NCBI GenBank assembly: GCA_951406725.2
Contig: OX597832.1
Coordinates: forward strand, 48,856,001 to 48,920,000
DNA from: Octopus vulgaris
Taxonomy: Eukaryota
DNA length: 64,000 bases
Reading direction: 5' to 3'
Shown here: piece by piece, positions 4,732 to 62,630 of the stretch
Position numbering within the stretch: the first letter of the stretch is position 1
Layout of the letters: each line of letters starts with the position of its first letter
Notes under the pieces: model-generated
What the model saw: only the letters and a program-made list of their open reading frames with translations
Told to the model about the DNA's origin: nothing
The model's database searches: none
Program-made: the position numbers and the translations under genes

Positions 4732-4925
4732 AACGGGAAGGTTTACCAAAATAAACAAAAGACGAAGGCAGGTGGAGTACAAACAAACAAATGTATTAGT
4801 ATGGCGCTCAGGAATAGAAATAGAACAAGTATTTTACGTTTCGAGCCTACGCTCTTCGACAGAAAGATATACAGAAAAAAACAAGGAGAGAAAAATGCGT
4901 GTAGGAGCTAACGATCTATCATGGC

Positions 4926-4926: not shown

Positions 4927-5011
<85 letters not shown>

Positions 5012-5017
5012 ATATAT

Positions 5018-5057
<40 letters not shown>

Positions 5058-5229
5058 ATATATAAGCGTATGTATAAAATATACACGCATTTAGGTAATT
5101 ATCAACGATTGCATGTGAAATTTTAAACGTCTCACATCTAATATATAAATCCTCGGATTTTAATGGCTGATAGGAAATACATGCTTACACAGACACACAG
5201 ACACCCGCGCACAAACACACGCCCATATG

Positions 5230-5263
<34 letters not shown>

Positions 5264-5346
5264 AACCAGATTGATCATAAAAGTGTAAGACAAAAGCAAA
5301 TGGAGGTCCAACGATAGAGCGACGGAAATTGCAATCCCTCTTCTTC

Positions 5347-5394
<48 letters not shown>

Positions 5395-5690
5395 ATATGT
5401 ATGTGTGTGTGTGAGTGCCTGAGCGAGTGTGTGTGTCCGTGCGTATGAATACGCACGCACAAAGACACACACTTACATGTATAAAGCATTTGTACGTTTG
5501 TGTATGTATATATAACGATAAGAACGACAATTGTGTAACGTTTGTTTGTGCTTATATATTTCTGCACATGTCAATTAATTTACTAAGGATGATTTACTGC
5601 TGTATATATTAAACGAGGTTCTCTGTAAACAAAAGGAAATTGACTATTTGTTCTTATACTTCATAGCTTTTTGTCTATAAACAATATGTG

Positions 5691-5722
<32 letters not shown>

Positions 5723-5885
5723 ATGTATGAATGTATATATATATATATATATATATCAGATACCCTATCTCACACACTCATGTGAATGTGTGCATGTGTT
5801 TGTGTGTACGTAGATGTGTGTATATATATATATATATTTATAAATAATATATATACGCATATATATATGTATATGTATATATATA

Positions 5886-5938
<53 letters not shown>

Positions 5939-5949
5939 CGAGAATTTAC

Positions 5950-5994
<45 letters not shown>

Positions 5995-6695
5995 CATGCA
6001 TATATGGGTACAGGATGTCACCAACAGTAACCAACATGAAATACTAAAACAAACGAGATCGATACGGAAACAACGAGAGAAACAAATGGAAAACAGGACA
6101 AGTCGCAGAAAGTCAGTGGTAACAACTTTTAACAGGTTCCGTTGTTACTATACCTCTTCAGTGAAGCATACTCAACATAGTTTGTTGGTACGAAGTAAAT
6201 TCATATAATTAGAGAAATTTGTATTATGGCGTTCAAAACATCCCCCAAATTTGCCTATAGTATGAATGGCTTAGAATTTAATCCGGGTTTTCCATTCTTG
6301 TTCTGGTGATCAGAAATTAGATTAGATTACTAAAAGCAATTGTAACTTTATTAGTATTTATCTCCACTTAAGCGTGAATGTTCTATTAGAATAAATCTTA
6401 CTACAGTTTTACCATGAGTAAAATTCCCATATAGGCTTTTCGGCGCAAAATGCACTCTTATTTATATCGCTATCGGGGAGGTAAATCCCTGGTATCTCTA
6501 GAGCGGAGACCACCAGATCCAGTGATTTCGATATTCTTTGGTCTTGCCAATGATGAAGACTCGATCACTAGAGACAACAGCAATTTATGTCTTTGCTAGC
6601 GGTATACCTGGATAGGTGCTTGTGTTGCGATTTGCGGACAAGGAACCATGTAGTTGGGAAGCAAAATTGTTACCAGTCAGCCACGGCTGTGCATA

Positions 6696-6771
<76 letters not shown>

Positions 6772-6773
<2 letters not shown>

Positions 6774-6962
6774 GTTATTCCAAACATGAACAAAGAGAAA
6801 TCACAACAACGCGAGGACGTGGGACAAGTATAGTGTTATTGGACGCTCAGGAAAGGAAAGAAAGAAAGAGGACTTAACGTTTCGAGCGGAGCTCTTCGTC
6901 AAAAACATAGAAAAAGGAAAGACCTGAGGAAGCGAACACGGAGAAAGGAAATCGCCAACGAT
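6772..6962 (-). mobile_element. P1-related hammerhead-bearing element
   Basis: Motif at 6873-6905 minus: ttt TTGACGAA gagc-tcc-gctc GAAA cg TT aag; homologous to 28515-28640; between (TA)n and (TATG)n. Confidence 0.7.
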
Positions 6963-7420
6963 ATATATATATGTGTATGTATGTATGTATGTATGTATGT
7001 ATGTATGTATGTATGTATGTATGTATGTATGTATGTATGTATGTATGTATGTATGTATGTATGTATGTATGTATTATGTATGTATGTATGTATGTGTGTA
7101 TGTGTGTATGTGTGTATGTATGTATGTATGTATGTTTGTATGTATGTATGTATGTATGTATGTATGTGTGTATGTGTGTATGTATGTACGTATGTATGTA
7201 TGTATGTATGTATGTATGTATGTATGTATGTATGTATGTGTGTGTATGTACGTATGTATGTGTGTATGTGTGTATGTGTGTATGTATGTATGTATGTTTG
7301 TATGTATGTATGTATGTTGTTTGTATGTATGTATGTATGTATGTATGTATGTATGTATGTATGTATGTATGTATGTATGTGTGTGTATGTACGTATGTAT
7401 GTATGTATATGTATGTATGT
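6962..7420. repeat. (TATG)n microsatellite
   Basis: Read directly; complementary (CATA)n tract at about 7715-7893. Confidence 0.97.
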
Positions 7421-8268
7421 ATTGATTATAAATATTTGTATGAAAACAATGACTACACACATTCTATATAGTTAACTGTACGCTTCTTTATTTATGGAGA
7501 TATCGATTACCCTCTGGCGCGGTTTGTATGAAGTATACGCGAAGAAAAGAAATCCTGGACAAATCTTAAAGGAAATAATGAATATGATTATAAACAGACA
7601 TGCAATCCTATCTTCTGTTATAAATACCATTTCAGGACATAAACATATACATGTGTACATACATACAGACAGACAATCAGACATACACACACACACACAA
7701 ACACACACGCAGATGCATACATACATAAATACATACATATATACATATATACATCCATCCATCCATCCATCCATCCATCCATACATACATCCATACATAC
7801 ATACATAAATACATACATACATACATACATACATACATACATACATACATACATACATACATACATACATACATACATACATACATACATACATGAATAT
7901 TTACGTATATACTGCCGCGATAGAGAACTTATGCTCAGAGTGACCTCTCTTTGGTACTTCCTAAGTAGGAGTGCTTAAAGTGCAAGGAATTCTGCATCCG
8001 ACAAAAGGGAACCCGACAAAATGCAGAACTGGGCACAAATGCTGTTTTTACGCCTTTTAATATGAGAGAATTTTCTCAGCACAGTAACAAAAGTGAATTT
8101 GGCTTTAAAAGTTGAAGTATGCCAGAAACCTCACATGCACTTACATACATACATTCTTGTGTGTATATGCATATATATATATATATATATACGGAGAGAG
8201 AATATTTGCAAGAGATTCCGAAGTCATCTGGAGGCCGTGGTTGAAGGCAATGGCGATTTTATTAAATA

Positions 8269-8804
8269 CAGCGTGTCCCAAAAAAATGTATACACTTGCT
8301 GCAACAGTCTGTCATGCTAAGCATTAGAGAGGACTTTGAACAGGAAGAGTTTTATTTCCAGCAAGATGGGGCTCCTCTACACTACCATCGCGATGTTAGA
8401 TCCTTTCTTGATGGGATCTTGCCAAACAGGTGGATTGGACGGAGAGGTTTTGTCGAATACCCTCCACGTTCACCAGACCTCACACCACTAGACTTCTTTT
8501 TATGGGGATACTTAAAGGACAAAGTCTACGTACAGAAACCTGCAACAGTCGTTCAATGGAGGGCAACCATTGAACATGAATGTACGAATATCCCAAGGGA
8601 ATTGTTCCATGATGTGTGCCATTCCATCGCTTCGTGTTGTCAGCAGTGTCTGGAGCAGAACGAACATCAGTTTGAGAACATGCGATAACAAGACAATAGA
8701 ATGATATTTGTAAATTCTTTTACATGTTGAAAATTATTCGAATTATAATAAACCCCAAATTTACAATTATTTAAGGTGTGTATACATTTTTTTGGGACAC
8801 CCTG
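8269..8804 (+). mobile_element. Internally deleted Tc1/mariner DD41D (rosa-type) transposon
   Basis: 27-bp TIRs CAG(C/G)GTGTCCCAAAAAAATGTATACAC at both ends; TA target duplication at 8267-8268 and 8805-8806. Confidence 0.93.
8296..8688 (+). pseudogene. DD41D transposase C-terminal fragment
   Basis: FQQDGAP...WIGR...YPPRSPDLTPLDFFLWGYLKDKVY; 41 residues between the D of QQD and the D of PLD; N-terminal half and first catalytic D missing. Confidence 0.92.
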
Positions 8805-8926
8805 TATATTTACTCTCTAGTATTTCAAAATATATATATGGAATTTTGGTAAATATATCTAAAAAATGAGATGTCAGTGTTGTTTTAATTTTGCGTAATT
8901 TAGAGGACACTTCATTCACCGCATCC

Positions 8927-8986
<60 letters not shown>

Positions 8987-9486
8987 TGTCTGTGTGTGTC
9001 TGTCTGTCTGTGTGTGTGTCTGTGTGTGTGTGTACGGCACACTCACACACACACAAACAAGTATGTATTTTTGTTTATATTTGGTGCACCAATATTTGGA
9101 GGGTTTTTTTACCTGTTCCAAAAGCTGATGTTATGCAATTGTCCGACGCTTCTCCCTTTCGCTCCGTTTAAGCTAATTTCCCTATTTATGTATATATATA
9201 TGTGTATACATGTGTATACTTGTTGGCGTAAGGAAATAAATCTCAATCTGTCCAACACATAGCAAAATGTCAAAGGCCGCATTAGTGCCATGTATACGTA
9301 TTACATACTGATTTGTTGTTTAAGCAAAATATGATTTCTATATACTTCTAAAGTATAGACACGTTTAAATAGCTATTGCTCATATTACTTTGCAAAGCGA
9401 TGGATTTCAATGTAATGATTTGGTATCTTGTACCATTCCAACCGATCAAAAATAGATTTGCAAACATACTACATATTTTTCCTGCG

Positions 9487-9530
9487 TTGCTGACGAGTAT
9501 ACGCTTACACGAAACCCGAGATATCAAACT
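9487..9530 (+). ncRNA. Decayed hammerhead-like motif
   Basis: CTGACGA gtata-cgct-tacac GAAA cccgag; core intact, but stem II has a mismatch and stems I/III are not cleanly formed. Confidence 0.35.
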
Positions 9531-9650
9531 CTGAAAAGAAATGTTTATATCAACACTTTATGTTACAATGTTTTACACATGTATTGCACACATATAGCTT
9601 TCATGTAGAGATTAGATCATTAAGTATGTATGCACAAGTATTTGCATGTA

Positions 9651-9708
<58 letters not shown>

Positions 9709-9709
9709 G

Positions 9710-9770
<61 letters not shown>

Positions 9771-9787
9771 AATATATACACAATATG

Positions 9788-9842
<55 letters not shown>

Positions 9843-9869
9843 ATAAGAGTAAATAATTTCTCCCTTTTT

Positions 9870-9920
<51 letters not shown>

Positions 9921-10362
9921 GAGCATAGAAATGTATGTTGTATATGTGAACACATTTCACACACTATATCATGTTGCTAATAGAAACGGGTCTTAGTAGA
10001 CTGATACTTAACATTGATTTGCAAGGAAATCTCTGGAGTAAAATACCTAAACCACAGCTAAAGATGCTTATCTTGGCGTATTCCGGAAGCAAGTCGGTGA
10101 ATCATTGTGAGTTAAAAAATGAAAAAAAAAAATAGACAATTTCTGCTGATTTTACTCTTGGTGTAGAGGTTTGGGCTTAGCTGTGTCATTAAAAAAATTA
10201 TCTTCAAGAGCGTGGCTCTTGGTTCAATCCCATTGGCAAGCTTTTGACCACTACCTTGCGAGTGGGGAGTGATAGATAAAAACATGTGTGTATGTACACA
10301 CATATTTATACGTATGCTCAAACAGCACATAAACATACGCGCAAACACAAATGAGGTATGAG

Positions 10363-10685
10363 GAGTACTCCGTCGGTTACGACGACGAGGGTCCCAGCTG
10401 ATACGATCAACGGAACAGTCTGTTCGTAAAATTAACGTGCAAGTGACTGAGCAATCCATCCACAGACACGTGTACCCCTAACGTAGTTCTCTGGGAGAGT
10501 CAGCGTGACACAGAGTGTGGCAAGGCCGGCCCTTTGAAATATAGGCACAACTCATTTTTGTCAGCTTAGTGGACTGGTGCAATGTGAAATAAAGTGTTTG
10601 CTCAAGGACACAACGCGTCGCTGGGAATTGAGCTCACGACCATACAATCCTGAGCCGAATGCCCTAACCACTAAGCCACGCGCCT
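10363..10685 (-). mobile_element. SINE family D (tRNA head, V-domain-like core), tail type a
   Basis: Minus: ggcgcgtggcttagtggttagg...ttgtgtccttgagcaaacactttatttcacattgc; tail shared with 29830-30103. Confidence 0.85.
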
Positions 10686-10714
10686 TCACGCACACACAAA
10701 TACAGACGCACAAG

Positions 10715-10776
<62 letters not shown>

Positions 10777-10783
10777 GTGTGTG

Positions 10784-10827
<44 letters not shown>

Positions 10828-10887
10828 TAAATAGATAGATAGATACATACATACATACATATATACATAAATACATACATACATACA

Positions 10888-10937
<50 letters not shown>

Positions 10938-12363
10938 TATATATATACATACATACATACATACATACATACATACATACCTAGGTGAATTCATACATAC
11001 CTATAGACTGACAGATACAAACCTGCATACACGGTTTGCATATTTATACAAAAAGACGTCGATGATGATATAGAAATTCTACACCGTTACTTCTTTCGAC
11101 TTTTCTTCACATGTGATAGGAATTCAGACGTTTCATTTGAAATGATAACCAAAGCAGTGTCATTTAATATTTGGTATATAAAGCAAATATTTTCCAAAGA
11201 AAAGTTCGGCCGTCTTCTTCTTTTTCTACGTGTATTGAATTAACACCATGAACATTCATTATGAAAGAGAACATTCAAAGAGATTTACTATTGAGATTTA
11301 GTTAACTCTGGCTTTCTTCAAAGTATTTTTTAAATATTTTTAAAAAGAAATTCTGTAGACATCATTGCAAAAGATTATTTATCTAACTTCATATAAAGCA
11401 AGAACGGTATATTTATCCGTCAGCAATTCTAATCGATTTTAATATGAAGAACATAAAGCATAAAACGTTTCCCAAATTTTTACATTGGTCATATAGATAT
11501 ACATGTAGTTAGAAATTAAAACTCAATGGATCTTGCGAATATATGTCGAGCAACGAGAAACTGTACGGATTCTACTTTCACTTTCTCTGATTACGCTATC
11601 TCGTTCTATCTGGCAAATAATAAATATTGATGGGTAAATAACAATTATGATTTCTGACATCTCATAATTATAATCGATAATTTCAATTAGTTTGGAAGCG
11701 TTTGTACTTGAGCAATGCAGTGAATTATATTATTCGGATCGGTGAGGATTATCTCACATAAAAGAAAACCTTAATAATTACGGATAACAAACGCTCACTG
11801 ATATGTTTCAATGTGGGCTTGTTATCACCTGCATAATTATATATTTCGCTTCGATACAAGCTGTTTGGTTGCTCTCCATTAGCTAGAGAAATGACACGAG
11901 TTTTAATTATTAAGCAGTGAGCGATTATTAGCATCCCTTTTAATTTTACTGTTGTTCCCGAACAGAGGACCTGTCTCCCATTTTTCGGCTATTCTACTAA
12001 TTGAAACAATGTATTTACTTTATACTATCCTTGATAAATTGTCCTGATGTAATAAAATTACACGGAAGCACAAATTCAAAGAAACGAACACGTAATATAT
12101 ATAGGTGTGTATATGAGTATACTCTTTTACTCTTTTACTTGTTTCTGTCATTTGACCGCGGCCATGCTGGAGCACCGCCTTTAGTCAAGCAAATTGACCC
12201 CAGGATTTATTCTTTGTAAGCCTAGTACTTATTCTATCATTCTCTCTTTTGCCGAACCACTAAGTTACGGGGACGTAAATACACCACCATCGGTTGTCAA
12301 GCGATGTTGGGGGGACAAACACAGATGCACGAACATACACACACACACGCACACACACACGCG

Positions 12364-12470
<107 letters not shown>

Positions 12471-12636
12471 AGCGATCAGCCATCTGAATGCGGCTAGGGA
12501 CAGGGCGGGGTGGTGGGGGTGTTACTGATGCATTTAGCCCCAGGCGACTATCGACGTCACCAGAAGAGCCGACACCATCACGGTGTCCTTGCTAGCCTGT
12601 AAAGGAGATCAGCCTCCCCGAAGATACGGATGCTAC

Positions 12637-12677
12637 ACACGGACCGGTTTCGAGGTATTTGCCTCTTGTCAGCGCAT
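12637..12677 (-). ncRNA. Mirror copy of the P2 hammerhead motif
   Basis: Exact reverse complement of 12695-12735. Confidence 0.7.
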
Positions 12678-12694
12678 GGCAGCGCATGGCAGCC

Positions 12695-12735
12695 ATGCGC
12701 TGACAAGAGGCAAATACCTCGAAACCGGTCCGTGT
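12695..12735 (+). ncRNA. Minimal type I hammerhead motif (C3/A8 variant)
   Basis: atgcg CTGACAA gagg-caaata-cctc GAAA ccgg TC cgtgt; GUC triplet, palindromic stem III. Confidence 0.7.
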
Positions 12736-12954
12736 GTAGCATCCGTATCTTCGGTGAGGCTGATCTCCCTTTGCAGGCTAGCAAGGACACCGTGATGGTG
12801 TCGGCTCTTCTGGTGACGTCGATAGTCGCCTGGGGCTAAATGCATCAGTAACACCCCCACCACCCCGCCCTGTCCCTAGCCACATTCAGATGGCTGATCC
12901 AGCTTATATTATAGAGCAGTTACTGTATATACCTCGCTCAGAGATTTATTATTG

Positions 12955-21604: not shown

Positions 21605-22671
21605 TGTGTGTGCATGTGTGTGCGTGTGTTTTTGTTTTCTACTTCACAATTTATAAATACCATATAATATAATTAAACTCAAACAAACGAACTAAGAGTT
21701 TTGAGAAAATATTAAAAATATCAAAATGCAAACATGACAAAAGAAACGTTGTTGGTAATCATACAAAGACAAAAATGATCGATAAGGAGCGGAACAACCC
21801 GAAATACTAGAATTATTCAATAGAGGTATAAAAGGTTCTATATATAACGATCTATAACCGAAGTCTACGGTGTTCGACTCTTATGGATTGCATTCAACTA
21901 AAATAGAAATAGATTTCACTGCATCCTTTCGATAATGGATACCATTGTTATGTATTGCCACATTCATAAATATAGAAAGACAACTCAAGGTGATTTGTTA
22001 TATATTGTGGTTATATTCTCTCTATTCAAGTTAAATGGAAAACATCTTTGGATGGAAATCGAAATTTATAAGTATTTTGTCGTCCGCTCACACACATGTA
22101 CAAATATATGGTGTCTACAAAATCCACTCACAAGGCTTTGGTCGGCCTTAGTAGAAGACACTTGCTCAATATGCCACGCAGTGGGAATGAACCCTGAACC
22201 ATCTGGTTGGTAAGCAAGCTATTTACCACACAGCCACTCCTGCATCTATCGCTTATGATAACTCTACCATTTATACTGCACAAATACAGCAGTGATAACT
22301 AAAACAGATATCTACATCATGTGTATTCCATATACTAACGTGTGATTAGACGTAACTATTAGCTAAATCAAATATAAATATTATAAAAGAATATGACAGC
22401 TTGTATATATTATTATAATTCATACATACATACATAAATACATACATACATACATACATACATACATACATACATACATACATACATACATACATACATG
22501 CATGCATGTAAAGGAGTACTGGTGGAATGTCCCAGTGAAAACCTCAACAAGATGTAAACACAATAGACCTGATATAATAATTTGGGACAGAGAAGAAGAA
22601 CTGTGTACATTTGCAGAAACAAGGAATATACCACTTGTATTTGAACAAAATTTAATTGTTTTCCATACTTA

Positions 22672-22707
22672 CAGTTGAAAAAGTTTCAATGACTGAAACC
22701 GGTACTG
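22672..22707 (+). ncRNA. Minimal hammerhead motif, U3:A8 core (family P3)
   Basis: cag TTGAAAA agtt-tcaat-gact GAAA ccgg TA ctg. Confidence 0.7.
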
Positions 22708-22745
22708 AAATGTTCTTTATAAAATTATATATATATATATATATT

Positions 22746-22957
22746 TACTCTTTTACTCTTTTACTTGTTTCAGTCATTTGACTGCGACCATGCTGGAGCA
22801 CTGCCTTTAGTCGAGAAAATCGACCCCGGGACTTATTCTTTGGAAGCCCAGTACTTATTCTATCGGTCTCCTTTTGCCGAACCGCTAAGTGACGGGGACG
22901 TAAACACACCAGCATCGGTTGTCAAGCAATGCTAGGGGGACAAACACAGGCACACAA

Positions 22958-22988
<31 letters not shown>

Positions 22989-23133
22989 CATATATACGAC
23001 TACCAAATCCACTCACAAGGCATTGGTCAGCCCGGGGCTATAGCAGAAGACACTTGCCCAAGATGCCACGCAGTGGGACTGAACCCAGAACCATGTGGCT
23101 GGTTAGCAAGCTGCTTACCACACAGCCACTCCT
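22746..23133 (-). mobile_element. SINE family A
   Basis: Colinear with the 3887 copy; inserted in (TA)n between P3 units. Confidence 0.92.
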
Positions 23134-23172
23134 ATATATATAAATGCTAAAATAATTTCATAAAAAACATTT

Positions 23173-23205
23173 CAGTACCGGTTTCAGTCATTGACACTTT
23201 TTCAA

Positions 23206-23208
<3 letters not shown>
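23173..23208 (-). ncRNA. P3 hammerhead motif
   Basis: Minus: cag TTGAAAA agt-gtcaatg-act GAAA ccgg TA ctg; whole unit about 23143-23210. Confidence 0.68.
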
Positions 23209-23261
<53 letters not shown>

Positions 23262-23288
23262 GCTAAAATAATTTTATAAAAAACATTT

Positions 23289-23324
23289 CAGTACCGGTTT
23301 CAGCCATTGTGACTTTTTCAACTG
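23289..23324 (-). ncRNA. P3 hammerhead motif
   Basis: Minus: cag TTGAAAA agtca-caa-tggct GAAA ccgg TA ctg; whole unit about 23258-23326. Confidence 0.72.
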
Positions 23325-25002
23325 TATATATATATATATATATCATAGTGAGAATATAGACAGATATACGTTTACCAATATTTACACGCAAACACACATA
23401 TGTATATGTGGGGTGGAGCATATATAGCCATATATAGCCATATGCATATGTACATATAAGTGATGACATTATTGGTAACGCCATACAACATAGTTACCAC
23501 ATATTTCAACATGTACCGTAGTTTCAGATGCTTACCGTTATATATAACCATTGAGAATGCTTTGAATAGAGATTGAGTCAGATAATGGGAATATATTCTC
23601 ATATACCGATTATCTGAGACACTGATTCCATTATGGCAGTGGTTTCAGGCAATCAAAATCTTATATTTTCACTAATTGTTCATTTCTTGTTCAATAGAAA
23701 ATAGTAATTCAGAGAAATAGATTTAAAATTCACAAAGATCTCTTCAATTTCTTTGATGCTTTTACCATAACGGCACCCTGCTGAAGTGAAGAATTGAGAT
23801 ATATGCCATAAACTACATCTTGAAAACCTTAGAGACATACAAATAGCAAAAAGCGAAAATCGTCTGGAACGCAGTGCCACACAGTATTCTAATATTCCTT
23901 AATATAGTCAAAGAAACAAGTAATAAAGGAAGATTTTTTTAAAGAATAGGCGTCGAAACCCCTGAACTATACTTAACGAACCAAAGAACGCTGTTGGGTG
24001 TAGAGTTGAATGTGAAAATATCAGACTCTATTATCCACTAGACGCCATATTGCTAAGGTTACAGTGAAACTGATAGCAGTGCCCCTCGCAGTGTTATATG
24101 AAATCGCGTGAAACCAATGATATAGGGAATTTAATTATAATTTGCTCTGTCCCTTACTGGGTCGCTGTGTAAGGGTATAAAGGTTCGTTTCTTTTTAATG
24201 TAGTGTGCCAAGTATATGTCAACCAGGCAGACATCTTTCTCTCTCAAATATATTGACTGTAAGTAGTAAAAGGTTGGGACATGAAGCTAATGAGTTGAAA
24301 TGGTTTTATTGGAATAGAACCTGCGTTGCAGACTTGATTTAGCAGGAACATATTTGCCATATAAGCTTCTCTAATTATTAAACTGAACTCGTTATGAAAG
24401 TATAACGAAAAACCTTAAATTTTATCATATCTGATAATAAAAGAACATATCTAAATTATTTGAAACGTGTCTGGCGATATAATGAAGCCAATGAATGACG
24501 AGACAATGAGAAGCCTTTTTCGCATTTGTTCGATCTACTTAACATAACAGCTAAAATTCTCTTAAATCATATAAACTGCAACATTTATATTAATAAAATG
24601 GGTTTGTCACGGCCGCAACGCTTTTGATTTGAGTACATCATGATCGGAGATAATTTATGGCTGAGCAACAACAAGTAAAAGAAAAGTGTGAATTATAATA
24701 ATGTGAATCTTATTATTCCAATTTACAGCTCTTAATGAATTACAACATTATAATTTTTTTTATTTAGTCACGTACCTCATTCATTAAAAAATATTATTGT
24801 CATATTTTCCAACAGCATGTGGCAGACATTTTTTTAAAAATTGTTTGGCCGAAATATGAGTTATTTCTAACACATCGACCGGTGTATACGTGATATCATT
24901 TCAATAAAATAAGGATTAAAAGCTTTGCAGTTTTATGGATATCAGCTGCCGAACGGATATGAATATCTCGAAAACTGGAAAAAGGAGAACATCTATGGAG
25001 AA

Positions 25003-30103: not shown

Positions 30104-31370
30104 ATGCTTTTTTTTCTTCAGATATATCTTACCTGGTGCAGCACGAAGCTTTGTCAGTGAACAGGTCGCGGTCTCAAAGCAACGAACATATTTTGATAAA
30201 TTAAATTTAAATGTTTTAGTGAATCTAACGGGTTTGTGTGTTTCTTAAATGGCTTATAAACACCTTCCACGCAGCAATTGTTTTTGTTCCAGCACACGAT
30301 CTCAGATCAAGTCACTCGCTATATCTTATCTATTTTAGATTAACAATTATGAGTAACGGCTATGGGAAATAATTACGCTGTCGGTATTTTCTTGCCCCAG
30401 TGAAAAACTGTTTGTCTGGTCAGCGCTGATCGGCCGAACCAACGATCATTGGCAGTGCAAAGGGTATTATCCTTTTGTGTTTTTTTCTAGCCGCAGTGTA
30501 TCTAAGATAACATTATCCAATGTGTGTGCGTGTTTTTTTTTAAAGAAGAGATTGTGATTATAGAAAGATCTGAATGCTATATCTAGCCATATGAACGACT
30601 GCATAGAGGCTCTTTCGTTGACTCGTTTTTATATTGTGCAAATTCATCCGCTTCTTAAACCTTTCAAACCAACCTTTACTAGCCAAATGTGGTTTTTCAT
30701 TAGAAACGTCACCTTCCTTTTTCTGAAACTCGTCATATAAACTTTTTTTCTTTTAATTATCATCAGGTCTATCAGCACGTTACGCCGATTCTATTCTCAG
30801 TCCATATACTCAAGAATCGATCCGTTTTAAGCATTATATTAGATCTATGGTAAAATAAGGTCCATACAGTTCAATTAACGGAGTATCTTCTTGAGCACTT
30901 GACATAATGTTCTATCTCCTTGTTGTCACGTATCGTTCCCGCTGTAGACGTTGCGGGATTCAATATTTTTCACGGATTAGGTTTTTGCTTTCGTTTCGAA
31001 AACATCGTTTAATATCCAGTGTAATTCCTTTAAGGTTCCTTTGCGAATTATTGCTTTCATTTCTACTTCATAGCTTCTTCCCAATCAGATTAACTTGAAG
31101 GTAAATCCACCAGCAGCAGCAGCAGCAGCGGTGATTAGTTATTCACAACAAATATGTACTGACAATAAATTGGCCCACGAAAGATATGTTTTGTGAGAAT
31201 GGAAAATTGTCTTCTACTAATGTAGAAGTAATAATGAAAATGAGATGATAAGGTGAAGTGACGAAGAGAAAGTACTATATGATTATATTTAACTGAAGAT
31301 TTTATGAGCAATTCTCCCCTTGCACTTTTGACTTAAGGTAGGCACGTGCGTGCAAATACACACACACACA

Positions 31371-34206: not shown

Positions 34207-34271
<65 letters not shown>

Positions 34272-34272
<1 letters not shown>

Positions 34273-34574
34273 AAATTTAAATAACGAATTGAATCTTTAA
34301 TTAATATCAATTTAAAAACAGTAGCGTAGCATATAGAAATATCTGAAAATTCAGAAAAAAATTGTAATACATGCGTATATTTAGGGATAACCACTAAGTG
34401 GACATCCAATATGCTAGAAGAAGATCACATACAATCTAACTACAAAGGAAAGAATGTTCTCTAGAGAAATTCAGCTGAATTTCTCTAGAGAACATTCTTT
34501 CCTTTGTAGTTAGATCGTATGTGATCTTCTTCTAGCATATTGGATGTCCACTTAGTGGTTATCCCTAAATATAC

Positions 34575-38550: not shown

Positions 38551-39112
38551 TATATATATATATATATATAAGGGAATTACAATGAATAGTGAGATTGACA
38601 CATCTGCATATCTTTTTTTCTCTTTTTTAATCTTTCAACTGTTTCAGTCATTAAACCGCAGCCATGCTGGGACTCCCCCTTGAAGGGTTTTAAACGAAGA
38701 AATCGACACCAGAACTTATTTTTTAAAACCCTGATACATATTGAAATGGTGCCTTTTTGCTAATTCGCTATGTTACCACAAAAATCTTGACGGTACTTTC
38801 GTTTAAGAGTTTAAAACACACTTTATATTATGTGCTTATCATTGAATTCACCTCACAGTCATTCAGGAAACCCACTCCAAAAAAAAGACATGGACTCAAT
38901 TCGGTATACTAGAGTGGAATACAGCAGTTTGACAACATCACATGACAAAGGCTACAATGGAGCCCCTATAGCCGGTCATTCATAGCAATAAATATCAAAC
39001 GACATGCTCTTTGATTTCGAGACAGTTTTTTTCGAAATCAGTGACGGAAGTTAGCGGGAAAAACAATAAGTATTTGCAAACAGGTCTCCCTTCATCGAAA
39101 ACCGGTAATTGC

Positions 39113-39310
39113 CGTAAGTTGACAAGAGGCAAATACCTCGAAACTGCAGTCCGTGCGTATCACTTAGGTTTACGAGAGAGGGATGATCTCCCTTTGAAAA
39201 TACCATAAGGGCACAGAAAGTGTGCCTAAAGCCAGCTGGAGACGATGATCTCCTGGGGCTAAAAGCTACAGTAACACCCACCTTTAGTGGTTAGCCATAT
39301 TGAGATGGCG
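39113..39310 (+). mobile_element. Diverged family P2 unit with U3:A8 hammerhead at 39113-39157
   Basis: cgtaag TTGACAA gagg-caaata-cctc GAAA ctgcag TC cgtgcg; downstream tgatctcccctttg and cctggggctaaa match 12760-12890. Confidence 0.75.
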
Positions 39311-59214: not shown

Positions 59215-59365
59215 TGTTTTTTTATAATTTTCATCTGTCTTGCCCGCATATTGTTCTGGTGTTCCGCTGAATTTTTCCTCTAGAGAACATTCTTTTCTTT
59301 GTAGTTTGATCGTAGGAGATCTACTTCTAGCATACGGCCGACCACCTAGTGGTTTTTATCCCTTT
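59212..59365 (+). mobile_element. Family P4 3' fragment
   Basis: ataattttcatctgtcttgcccgc...tagagaacattc...tttgtagtttgatcgta matches 62530-62630; in (TA)n. Confidence 0.85.
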
Positions 59366-59535
59366 GAATATACATACACATAAATATATATATATATAAC
59401 GACCTCGAACACACAAGTGCAAACAAGGGAGTCAGAGAAAGGCAGTATGCCACTTATATCTGAACACTACTATAGAAATATTCCCTTAAAAAAACTTTTC
59501 TTCTAATTTTTCTAAATTTAATTATTTAATCGTTA

Positions 59536-59573
59536 CAGTTGAAAAGGTCTCAAAATGACCGAAACCGATACTG
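59536..59573 (+). ncRNA. P3 hammerhead motif with compensatory stem II
   Basis: cag TTGAAAA ggtc-tcaaaat-gacc GAAA ccga TA ctg; downstream ataaaattatcttagcattt matches the 23-kb copies. Confidence 0.68.
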
Positions 59574-59622
59574 AAAGATTCACTATAAAATTATCTTAGC
59601 ATTTTCTATTTTTGACTTGTTT

Positions 59623-59730
<108 letters not shown>

Positions 59731-61878: not shown

Positions 61879-62630
61879 GGGAAACCACTAGGTGGATAAC
61901 CATACGCTAGAAGATCACATACGATCAAACTACAAAGAAAAAATGTTCTCCAGAGAAAATTCTGCGAACACCAGAACATAAGCGGGCAAGACAGATGAAA
62001 ATTATATAAAAATCAAGAATTAATCGTATACCGATTTCGTCTATTACCGAATAAATTATTTACGAAATCCTTCGTCCGCAGAACGCGTCAGTACGATCGT
62101 TCCAATTTCAATATAATTTGAAAAACTAAACACTATCTGTCCATATAAATCTAGACATGTGCTTAGTTCTACCGATTATATTGAGGTTAATTTCAAATGT
62201 CTAAATTCCGGCGCGCTAAATTCCGGAAACAGTTCTGCAGCAGATAATTTACTGCAGTTAATGTTGCCAATTAGAGAACATAATTATTTTAAAATTTAAA
62301 TAATGAGGGAGATAAATTGAATATTAATTAACATCAATTTAAAAGCAGTAGCCTAGCGCATAAAAAATCTGAATACATTTAGGAACACCACTAGGTGGAT
62401 AACTATACGCTAGAAGAAGATCACATACGATCTAACTACAAAGCGTACTGACGAGTTCTGCGGACGAAGGATTACGTAAGTAATTTATTCGGTAACAGAC
62501 GAAACCGGTATACGATTAATTCTTGATTTTTATATAATTTTCATCTGTCTTGCCCGCTTCTGTTCTGGTGTTCACTGAATTTTCTCTGGAGAACAGTTTT
62601 TCTTTGTAGTTAGATCGTATGTGATCTTCT
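61875..62630. mobile_element. Family P4: 503-bp unit with partial tandem repeat plus inverted segment
   Basis: ccactaggtggataac at 61885 and 62388; 62444-62630 is the reverse complement of about 61910-62095. Confidence 0.9.
62444..62514 (+). ncRNA. Type I hammerhead motif with fully canonical core and long stem II
   Basis: cgta CTGACGA gttctg...cagac GAAA ccgg TA tacg; mutated mirror copy at 62023-62097 minus. Confidence 0.8.

Follow-up and report, generated by a model that had tools for sequence, protein, structure and literature searches.

U3:A8 minimal hammerhead motifs of a high-copy octopus repeat family, likely derived from a Penelope-like element

Minimal hammerhead ribozymes (min-HHRs) with a U3-A8 pair have been described in repeats of Penelope-like elements (PLEs). 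In the sections drawn on here, Cervera and De la Peña (2014; PMC4209133) report such motifs in PLE repeats (Cercyon; ~1,300 in Schistosoma mansoni), and a PLE-associated motif named S. mansoni(4) has the core UUGAAAA. Their min-HHR consensus comprises CUGANGA or UUGANAA, GAAAN, a palindrome, NUH, and AU-rich flanks. Dimers and trimers of the minimal motif cleave weakly and the monomer not at all; the dimer cleavage is also summarized in a passage of a review (PMC6765202) that cites Lünse et al. 2017. Most of the motifs occur singly, which the 2014 paper ascribes to truncated PLEs. Natural covariation to U3:A8 was published in 2011 (PMC3088659, whose relevant passages cite earlier in vitro activity), and this bears out the premise of a sequence-only reading of the DNA analyzed here, namely that U3:A8 is a tolerated natural variant.

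We analyzed a stretch of 64,000 nucleotides from Octopus vulgaris (GenBank assembly GCA_951406725.2, contig OX597832.1, positions 48,856,001 to 48,920,000; hereafter “the window”), an AT-rich, microsatellite-rich DNA with a GC content of 30-41%. The window contains four motifs that are real hammerhead-shaped sequences and belong to one high-copy repeat family. We consider it likely that these minimal type I hammerheads, with U3:A8 throughout the family, are the 5'-truncated pseudo-LTR (pLTR) ends of an abundant PLE that inserts into (TA)n. The sequence-only reading had proposed a cryptic ribozyme family; a U3:A8 type I structure that needs a dimer is indeed present, but the kind is not new, having been published for PLEs in 2014 (PMC4209133, in the sections cited).

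Four copies of one dispersed family

All four copies lie where they had been reported, with U3 at 22675(+), 23321(-), 23205(-), and 59539(+) (copies A, B, C, and D, respectively; Table 1), and all have the core TTGAAAA. Each copy runs through CAG, UUGAAAA, helix II, GAAAC, CG, GUA (AUA in D), and CUG, an architecture that agrees with the min-HHR consensus as given in the cited sections of PMC4209133. The type I hammerhead core is satisfied in every copy (U3:A8 Watson-Crick pair, GAAA, and UA), and helix I is constant as CAG/CTG in 4 of 4, as had been claimed. CCGG occurs in the expected three copies, and the copy at 59539 has CCGA, which gives a C15.2-A16.2 mismatch; helix III is just the palindrome ACCGGU in three of the four copies, which allows a dimer. 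Helix II measures 3-5 bp and starts with A10.1-U11.1 in A-C and with G10.1-C11.1 in D, the latter without an extra base after A9.

Table 1. Positions of the family copies and adjoining features in the window
Feature	Positions	Strand	Description
Separate high-copy repeat adjoining copy A	22510-22612	+	Drop in depth at 22601-22608, with pieces that end at 22613; does not belong to the family
Copy A	22613-22728	+	About 59 nt of upstream family sequence, hammerhead, and short 3' end; 116 nt in total
Hammerhead A	22672-22707	+	Helix I CAG/CUG; U3 at 22675 to A9 at 22681; 4-bp helix II including one U-G, then GAAAC-CG-GUA; predicted cut site after 22704
Abundant repeat between A and C, presumably SINE-like	22745-23135	-	Tail with 10 occurrences in the window; does not belong to the family
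Copy C	23142-23208	-	67 nt; ends as in B; U3 at 23205; predicted cut site after 23176
TA spacer between B and C	23209-23257		49 nt, pure TA; target microsatellite
Copy B	23258-23324	-	67 nt; U3 at 23321; 3' end AGCATTT; predicted cut site after 23292
Copy D	59399-59626	+	About 228 nt; second subfamily; hammerhead at 59536-59573

The description of these sequences as ~70-bp elements fits only B and C. The four copies (A to D) measure 116, 67, 67, and ~228 nt and have three distinct 3' ends, at +0 in A, about +10 nt in B and C, and about +33 nt in D. Copy A ends in (TA)n and has a deletion at 22645/22646, where 35-39 nt are missing compared with the other copies. Copy D, which is 80-84% identical to A-C, has ~137 nt of upstream sequence, the full 3' tail, and (TA)n on either side.

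To place the copies in a wider context, contigs of 4 of the 24 listed public runs (4 organism labels, 3 studies) were aligned to 22505-22734 at 80% likeness, a comparison that favors alignable sequences, is limited by contig breakage, and is silent on RNA. Between 1,914 and 2,991 records aligned per run, and the summed depth over the core was 88,000-553,000, versus ~7-52 for single pieces. The family probably has thousands of copies; a rough inference from depth, which is no true copy number, puts it at roughly 5,000-12,500. Over 22673-22681 and 22695-22728, no alternative letter reached 3 in 100 of depth in the four runs. The core, GAAA, and UA are fixed in these contigs, so U3 and A8 are the state of the family and not the decay of a single copy. 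The variants listed affect helix II with its loop and, in one run, the third pair of helix I (7.6%). C at 22685 accounts for 93-98% of depth, which makes AGUC/GACU the usual helix II.

Upstream, the family reaches at least to 22613, where loose ends match the upstream sequence of copy D; downstream, 45-80 contigs per run continue into the tail. No sharp family start or end was called over 22505-22734, and the true start lies outside this stretch. Given this upstream extension and the optional 3' tail, a length of ~70 bp applies to the two tandem copies alone. Family sequence extends beyond the ribozyme, and the short copies have the appearance of truncations, which is at odds with the notion of ribozyme-only elements. 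Together, the copies and contigs make up a dispersed high-copy family with fixed U3 and A8, variable 5' extent, and TA flanks. Six RNA runs contain 4-10% of the words, probably from the SINE or TA, and give no evidence for motif RNA.

Several other features lie in or beside the copies. A 14-codon frame with its ATG inside helix II is present in all four (22690-22734(+) and equivalents), with a TAG stop in B, C, and D. A pyrimidine-rich tract plus TTA precedes the helix I CAG at 22650-22674(+) and 59500-59538(+), in the manner of a 3' splice site. The repeat adjoining copy A is presumably a fragment of a restriction-like-endonuclease LINE, judged by eye (no Pfam match). The 3' hairpin of the repeat that we take to be SINE-like, AGTC-AAAT-GACT-GAAAC-AA-GTA (22767-22783(-) and nine other tails), resembles the family from helix II through GUA; it has no YUGA core, and the likeness may reflect chance or shared origin.

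Relation to Penelope-like elements and retrozymes

The PLE min-HHRs of S. mansoni Cercyon, as presented in the cited sections of PMC4209133, resemble the octopus motifs in being type I, in the short helix I, the palindromic or absent helix III, the dimer requirement, and the U3-A8 core, and in occurring as thousands of mostly solitary copies with AU-rich flanks. The octopus motifs differ in that helix II is shorter (4 bp), the palindrome of helix III is a 2-nt CG, and the A-C subfamily has A10.1-U11.1 with no extra base before 10.1. They also come from a different host lineage, and no parent ORF was found for them here. None of A-D combines an extra base after A9 with G10.1-C11.1, as PLE min-HHRs do, and the PLE motifs in the same sections include exceptions to this rule: a PLE-associated Marsupenaeus motif has A10.1-U11.1, a 4-bp helix II, and a palindromic helix III like A-C.

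Two pLTR hammerheads offer further parallels. That of Drosophila virilis Penelope (PMC4209133, same sections) has a short helix I and a small palindromic helix III, and the 3' end of its intron maps to the helix I 5' strand; in A and D, the CAG follows a pyrimidine tract, which is a likeness in sequence. Unlike copies A-D, it has a C3-G8 core and a longer helix II. The Anolis Poseidon element PAc (Frangieh 2024; PMC11167929, in the parts cited) likewise has a pLTR hammerhead, AT-rich targets, and two 3' ends with a tail of 30-40 nt between them; unlike copies A-D, it has a C3-G8 core, and its ORF begins in helix II. Cleavage by its hammerhead depends on the protein of the element, and insertion in vitro did not require the ribozyme.

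That the octopus family belongs to the PLEs is suggested by the architecture of its ribozyme, the structure of its ends, and its preference for certain targets. The PLE-like traits found are 5' truncation, an optional 3' tail of 30-40 nt, which the differing 3' ends fit, and (TA)n targets. The window also contains several other min-HHR families, one of them with an inverted, head-to-head pair of the sort that PLE insertions typically leave, and this adds to the support. We infer that the motifs cleave after GUA. In the tandem transcript of the parent element, two motifs would pair via ACCGGU:ACCGGU, exchange helix I strands, and be cut there, probably slowly or with the aid of the element's protein. 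Reverse transcription would then be primed at a nick in AT-rich DNA and begin 20-55 nt 3' of the motif. By analogy with PMC11167929 (in the parts cited) and PMC8557442, alternative start points may yield the optional tail, and early stops may leave stubs of little but ribozyme.

Several observations count against this origin: B and C are separated by TA and not joined directly as in a PLE partial tandem, A-C are without the usual G10.1-C11.1, the predicted folds of A and C do not favor the hammerhead helices, and no ORF with reverse transcriptase (RT) or GIY-YIG domains could be linked to the family. All four copies are too short to reach an ORF with both domains. Pfam gave no match for three frames upstream of copy D or for read-through frames upstream of four hammerheads, and neither RT nor GIY-YIG among 123 of the 185 non-repetitive window frames of at least 56 aa; a search for longer homologues with a single frame upstream of copy D found none, which is weak evidence. 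The only Pfam match above cut-off among these 123 frames was a Tc5 transposase DNA-binding fragment at 30561-30752(-) (E 8.5e-6), and a Tc1/mariner-like frame was seen by eye at 8266-8685(+), with no Pfam match. The motif is not in two PLE or repeat supplements. We found no published description of this particular family, and repeat libraries outside these supplements, Repbase, or bioRxiv supplements may contain one. A motif scan of viral contigs gave no matches. Two metagenome matches to a looser pattern (none to the stricter one) lay in a bacterial-looking coding frame and had no helix II, and we dismissed them as chance.

The main rival of the PLE reading is an ORF-less family, retrozyme- or SINE-like and a few hundred nt long, that is moved by PLE proteins, with B and C as a short sub-lineage or a nascent array. 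We judge this unlikely. Non-LTR retrozymes (PMC7229834; bioRxiv 10.64898/2026.07.22.740005; both in the parts cited) share with the octopus motifs tandem type I hammerheads, dimer use, and a link to PLEs; monomeric, dimeric, and multimeric forms of them occur, and PLE pLTRs are their reported source. The common ends and 116-nt tandem of B and C would fit such a family, as would the finding that no coding sequence was recognized within 137 nt upstream of D. However, the published retrozymes form true arrays of 150-450 bp units with mostly canonical hammerheads and demonstrated circular RNA, whereas the octopus has a single (TA)n-split pair of 67-nt copies whose 49-nt spacer is pure microsatellite. 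Moreover, neither a joint of 3' end to upstream sequence nor a sharp 5' boundary is listed (the true start is outside 22505-22734).

A bolder proposal, to which we give little credence, is a ribozyme-only mobile unit of ~67 nt that spreads into (TA)n and makes up an active dimer when two units land in one microsatellite, with a splice switch at the CAG of its parent and a SINE hairpin that is perhaps hammerhead-derived. If this were true, the unit would be among the smallest possible mobile units; the helix I CAG would double as a 3' splice site, so that splicing would swap helix I and switch cleavage; and the dominant SINE may owe its 3' hairpin to this hammerhead.

The other hammerhead families of the window can be described separately. 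The head-to-head inverted pair (12474-12680(-) and 12692-12899(+); 208 nt, 98% identical) has a 6-bp helix I, a CAAAUA loop II, and GAAACCGGUC as in the A-D family; its core is CUGACAA, with a C3-A8 mismatch in both copies. A 72% relative of this family at 39119-39149(+) has the U3:A8 core UUGACAA and a palindromic UGCA loop III. Upstream of it, at 38800-39105, frames resemble on visual inspection a degraded GIY-YIG end, without Pfam support; HMMER with the frame upstream of this hammerhead (39120) gave three matches, and the two examined were unrelated repeat proteins. A third family (62444-62514(+) and 61909-62095(-)) has the canonical core CUGACGA, a helix II with a long insert, GAAACCGGUA, and internal inverted repeats; fragments of it are present at 59217-59356 and at 34271-34573. 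Motifs that resemble min-HHRs but have no loop on helix III (GAG...CUC GAAAC GU) lie at 4862(-), 6902(-), 28561(-), 33948(-), 38427(+), 47709(+), 61222(-), and 61706(+), several of them with altered cores, e.g., CUGUCGA or CUGUAGA.

Predicted folding and the test against chance

Hammerhead helices are predicted to be dominant in copy D alone (P 0.85 and 0.99). They are weak in A and C, whose predicted folds do not favor them. Helix I of copy D (59525-59580(+)) can be extended past a bulge, with a predicted P of 0.85; the 5' strand of this helix is aligned with a bulge in the Rfam model Hammerhead_HH9, with a proximal helix ~4 nt shorter, and the extended part is lost from B and C.

The tandem pair has the period of 116 nt and the pure TA spacer described in the sequence-only reading; copies A and C lie tail-to-tail. 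Both ends are common to B and C, which have 4 differences in 71 nt, as many as either has versus A. Both start at helix I, where the TACAG of the family meets (TA)n, a two-base TA microhomology. They likely go back to a local duplication of one truncated product or to two separate insertions in the same microsatellite, and they are probably passengers undergoing decay.

We consider it very unlikely that the tandem of B and C is a functional dimeric ribozyme under local selection, acting on a transcript of the host or on read-through RNA. In its favor, folding of the minus-strand RNA predicts that the two ACCGGU sequences join in helix III (P 0.87-0.94), and the topology of the double-hammerhead fold is nested. 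However, helix III forms equally well with shuffled spacers (median P 0.875; at least 0.5 in all 100), so the TA spacer contributes nothing. In a tight construct, the complete core has a P of 3e-3 for B and 1e-5 for C, and of 6e-8 or less for both together; wider flanks lower the value for B further. A 3' hairpin in B and C (-4.3 and -4.7 kcal/mol) takes, and thereby hides, the CUG strand of helix I, and helix II of copy C is down to 3 bp. Trans co-folds of monomers are dominated by the TA flanks. The suggested tandem dimer fold is partly supported: its helix III is expected to form in cis, whereas the full active structure is disfavored (P at most 0.003). The predicted energies, which leave out tertiary core contacts and proteins, argue against efficient cleavage and would be compatible with slow cleavage.

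The claim that stem II covaries was overstated. One of the seven pairs shows a compensatory change, a score that 128 of 500 shuffles also reach, on four sequences only. Four of the seven pairs are invariant, two have one-sided changes, and one has a two-sided change (A-U to G-C, in copy D alone). Against the majority letters, A, B, and C each have a different one-sided change, giving a wobble in A and in B and a broken pair in C, and the compensatory change in helix II is limited to the D subfamily, itself found in loose ends of three of the four runs.

Standard models do miss the motif, as had been stated. Rfam found no hammerhead match in 22600-23400 at E values up to 10, which leaves A-C without a match, and copy D scores 17 bits to Hammerhead_HH9 (E 0.064), far under the gathering score of 52. 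Over the whole window, Rfam returned mostly microsatellite miRNA matches, with no hammerheads among the 150 of 438 matches listed.

The four copies are nevertheless far above chance. With a type I descriptor that calls for a palindromic helix III, six loci were found in the window, versus a mean of 0.01 and a maximum of 1 in 100 local dinucleotide shuffles; three are copies A-C and three belong to other families, and D fails through its C15.2-A16.2 mismatch. In helices I and II, 27 of 28 cells are paired across the four copies, versus 4-46% for slid alignments. A chance likeness of an AT-rich repeat to a hammerhead would agree with the non-significant covariation and the low Rfam score, but it is scarcely credible given the descriptor excess, a full set of core positions in the correct order with a double change that keeps the 3:8 pair, a palindrome placed where a dimer requires it, and variation confined to helix II and its loop.

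Significance

The family is an addition to the known U3:A8 hammerheads of PLE type and opens no new kind of system; its importance is modest. A genome-wide alignment could probe selection on the core in a setting where, for PAc, insertion in vitro took place without need of the ribozyme (PMC11167929, in the parts cited). What is added is a multi-thousand-copy U3:A8 family, common to four organism labels, that CUGANGA descriptors and Rfam overlook, and ribozyme counts in such genomes are therefore too low.
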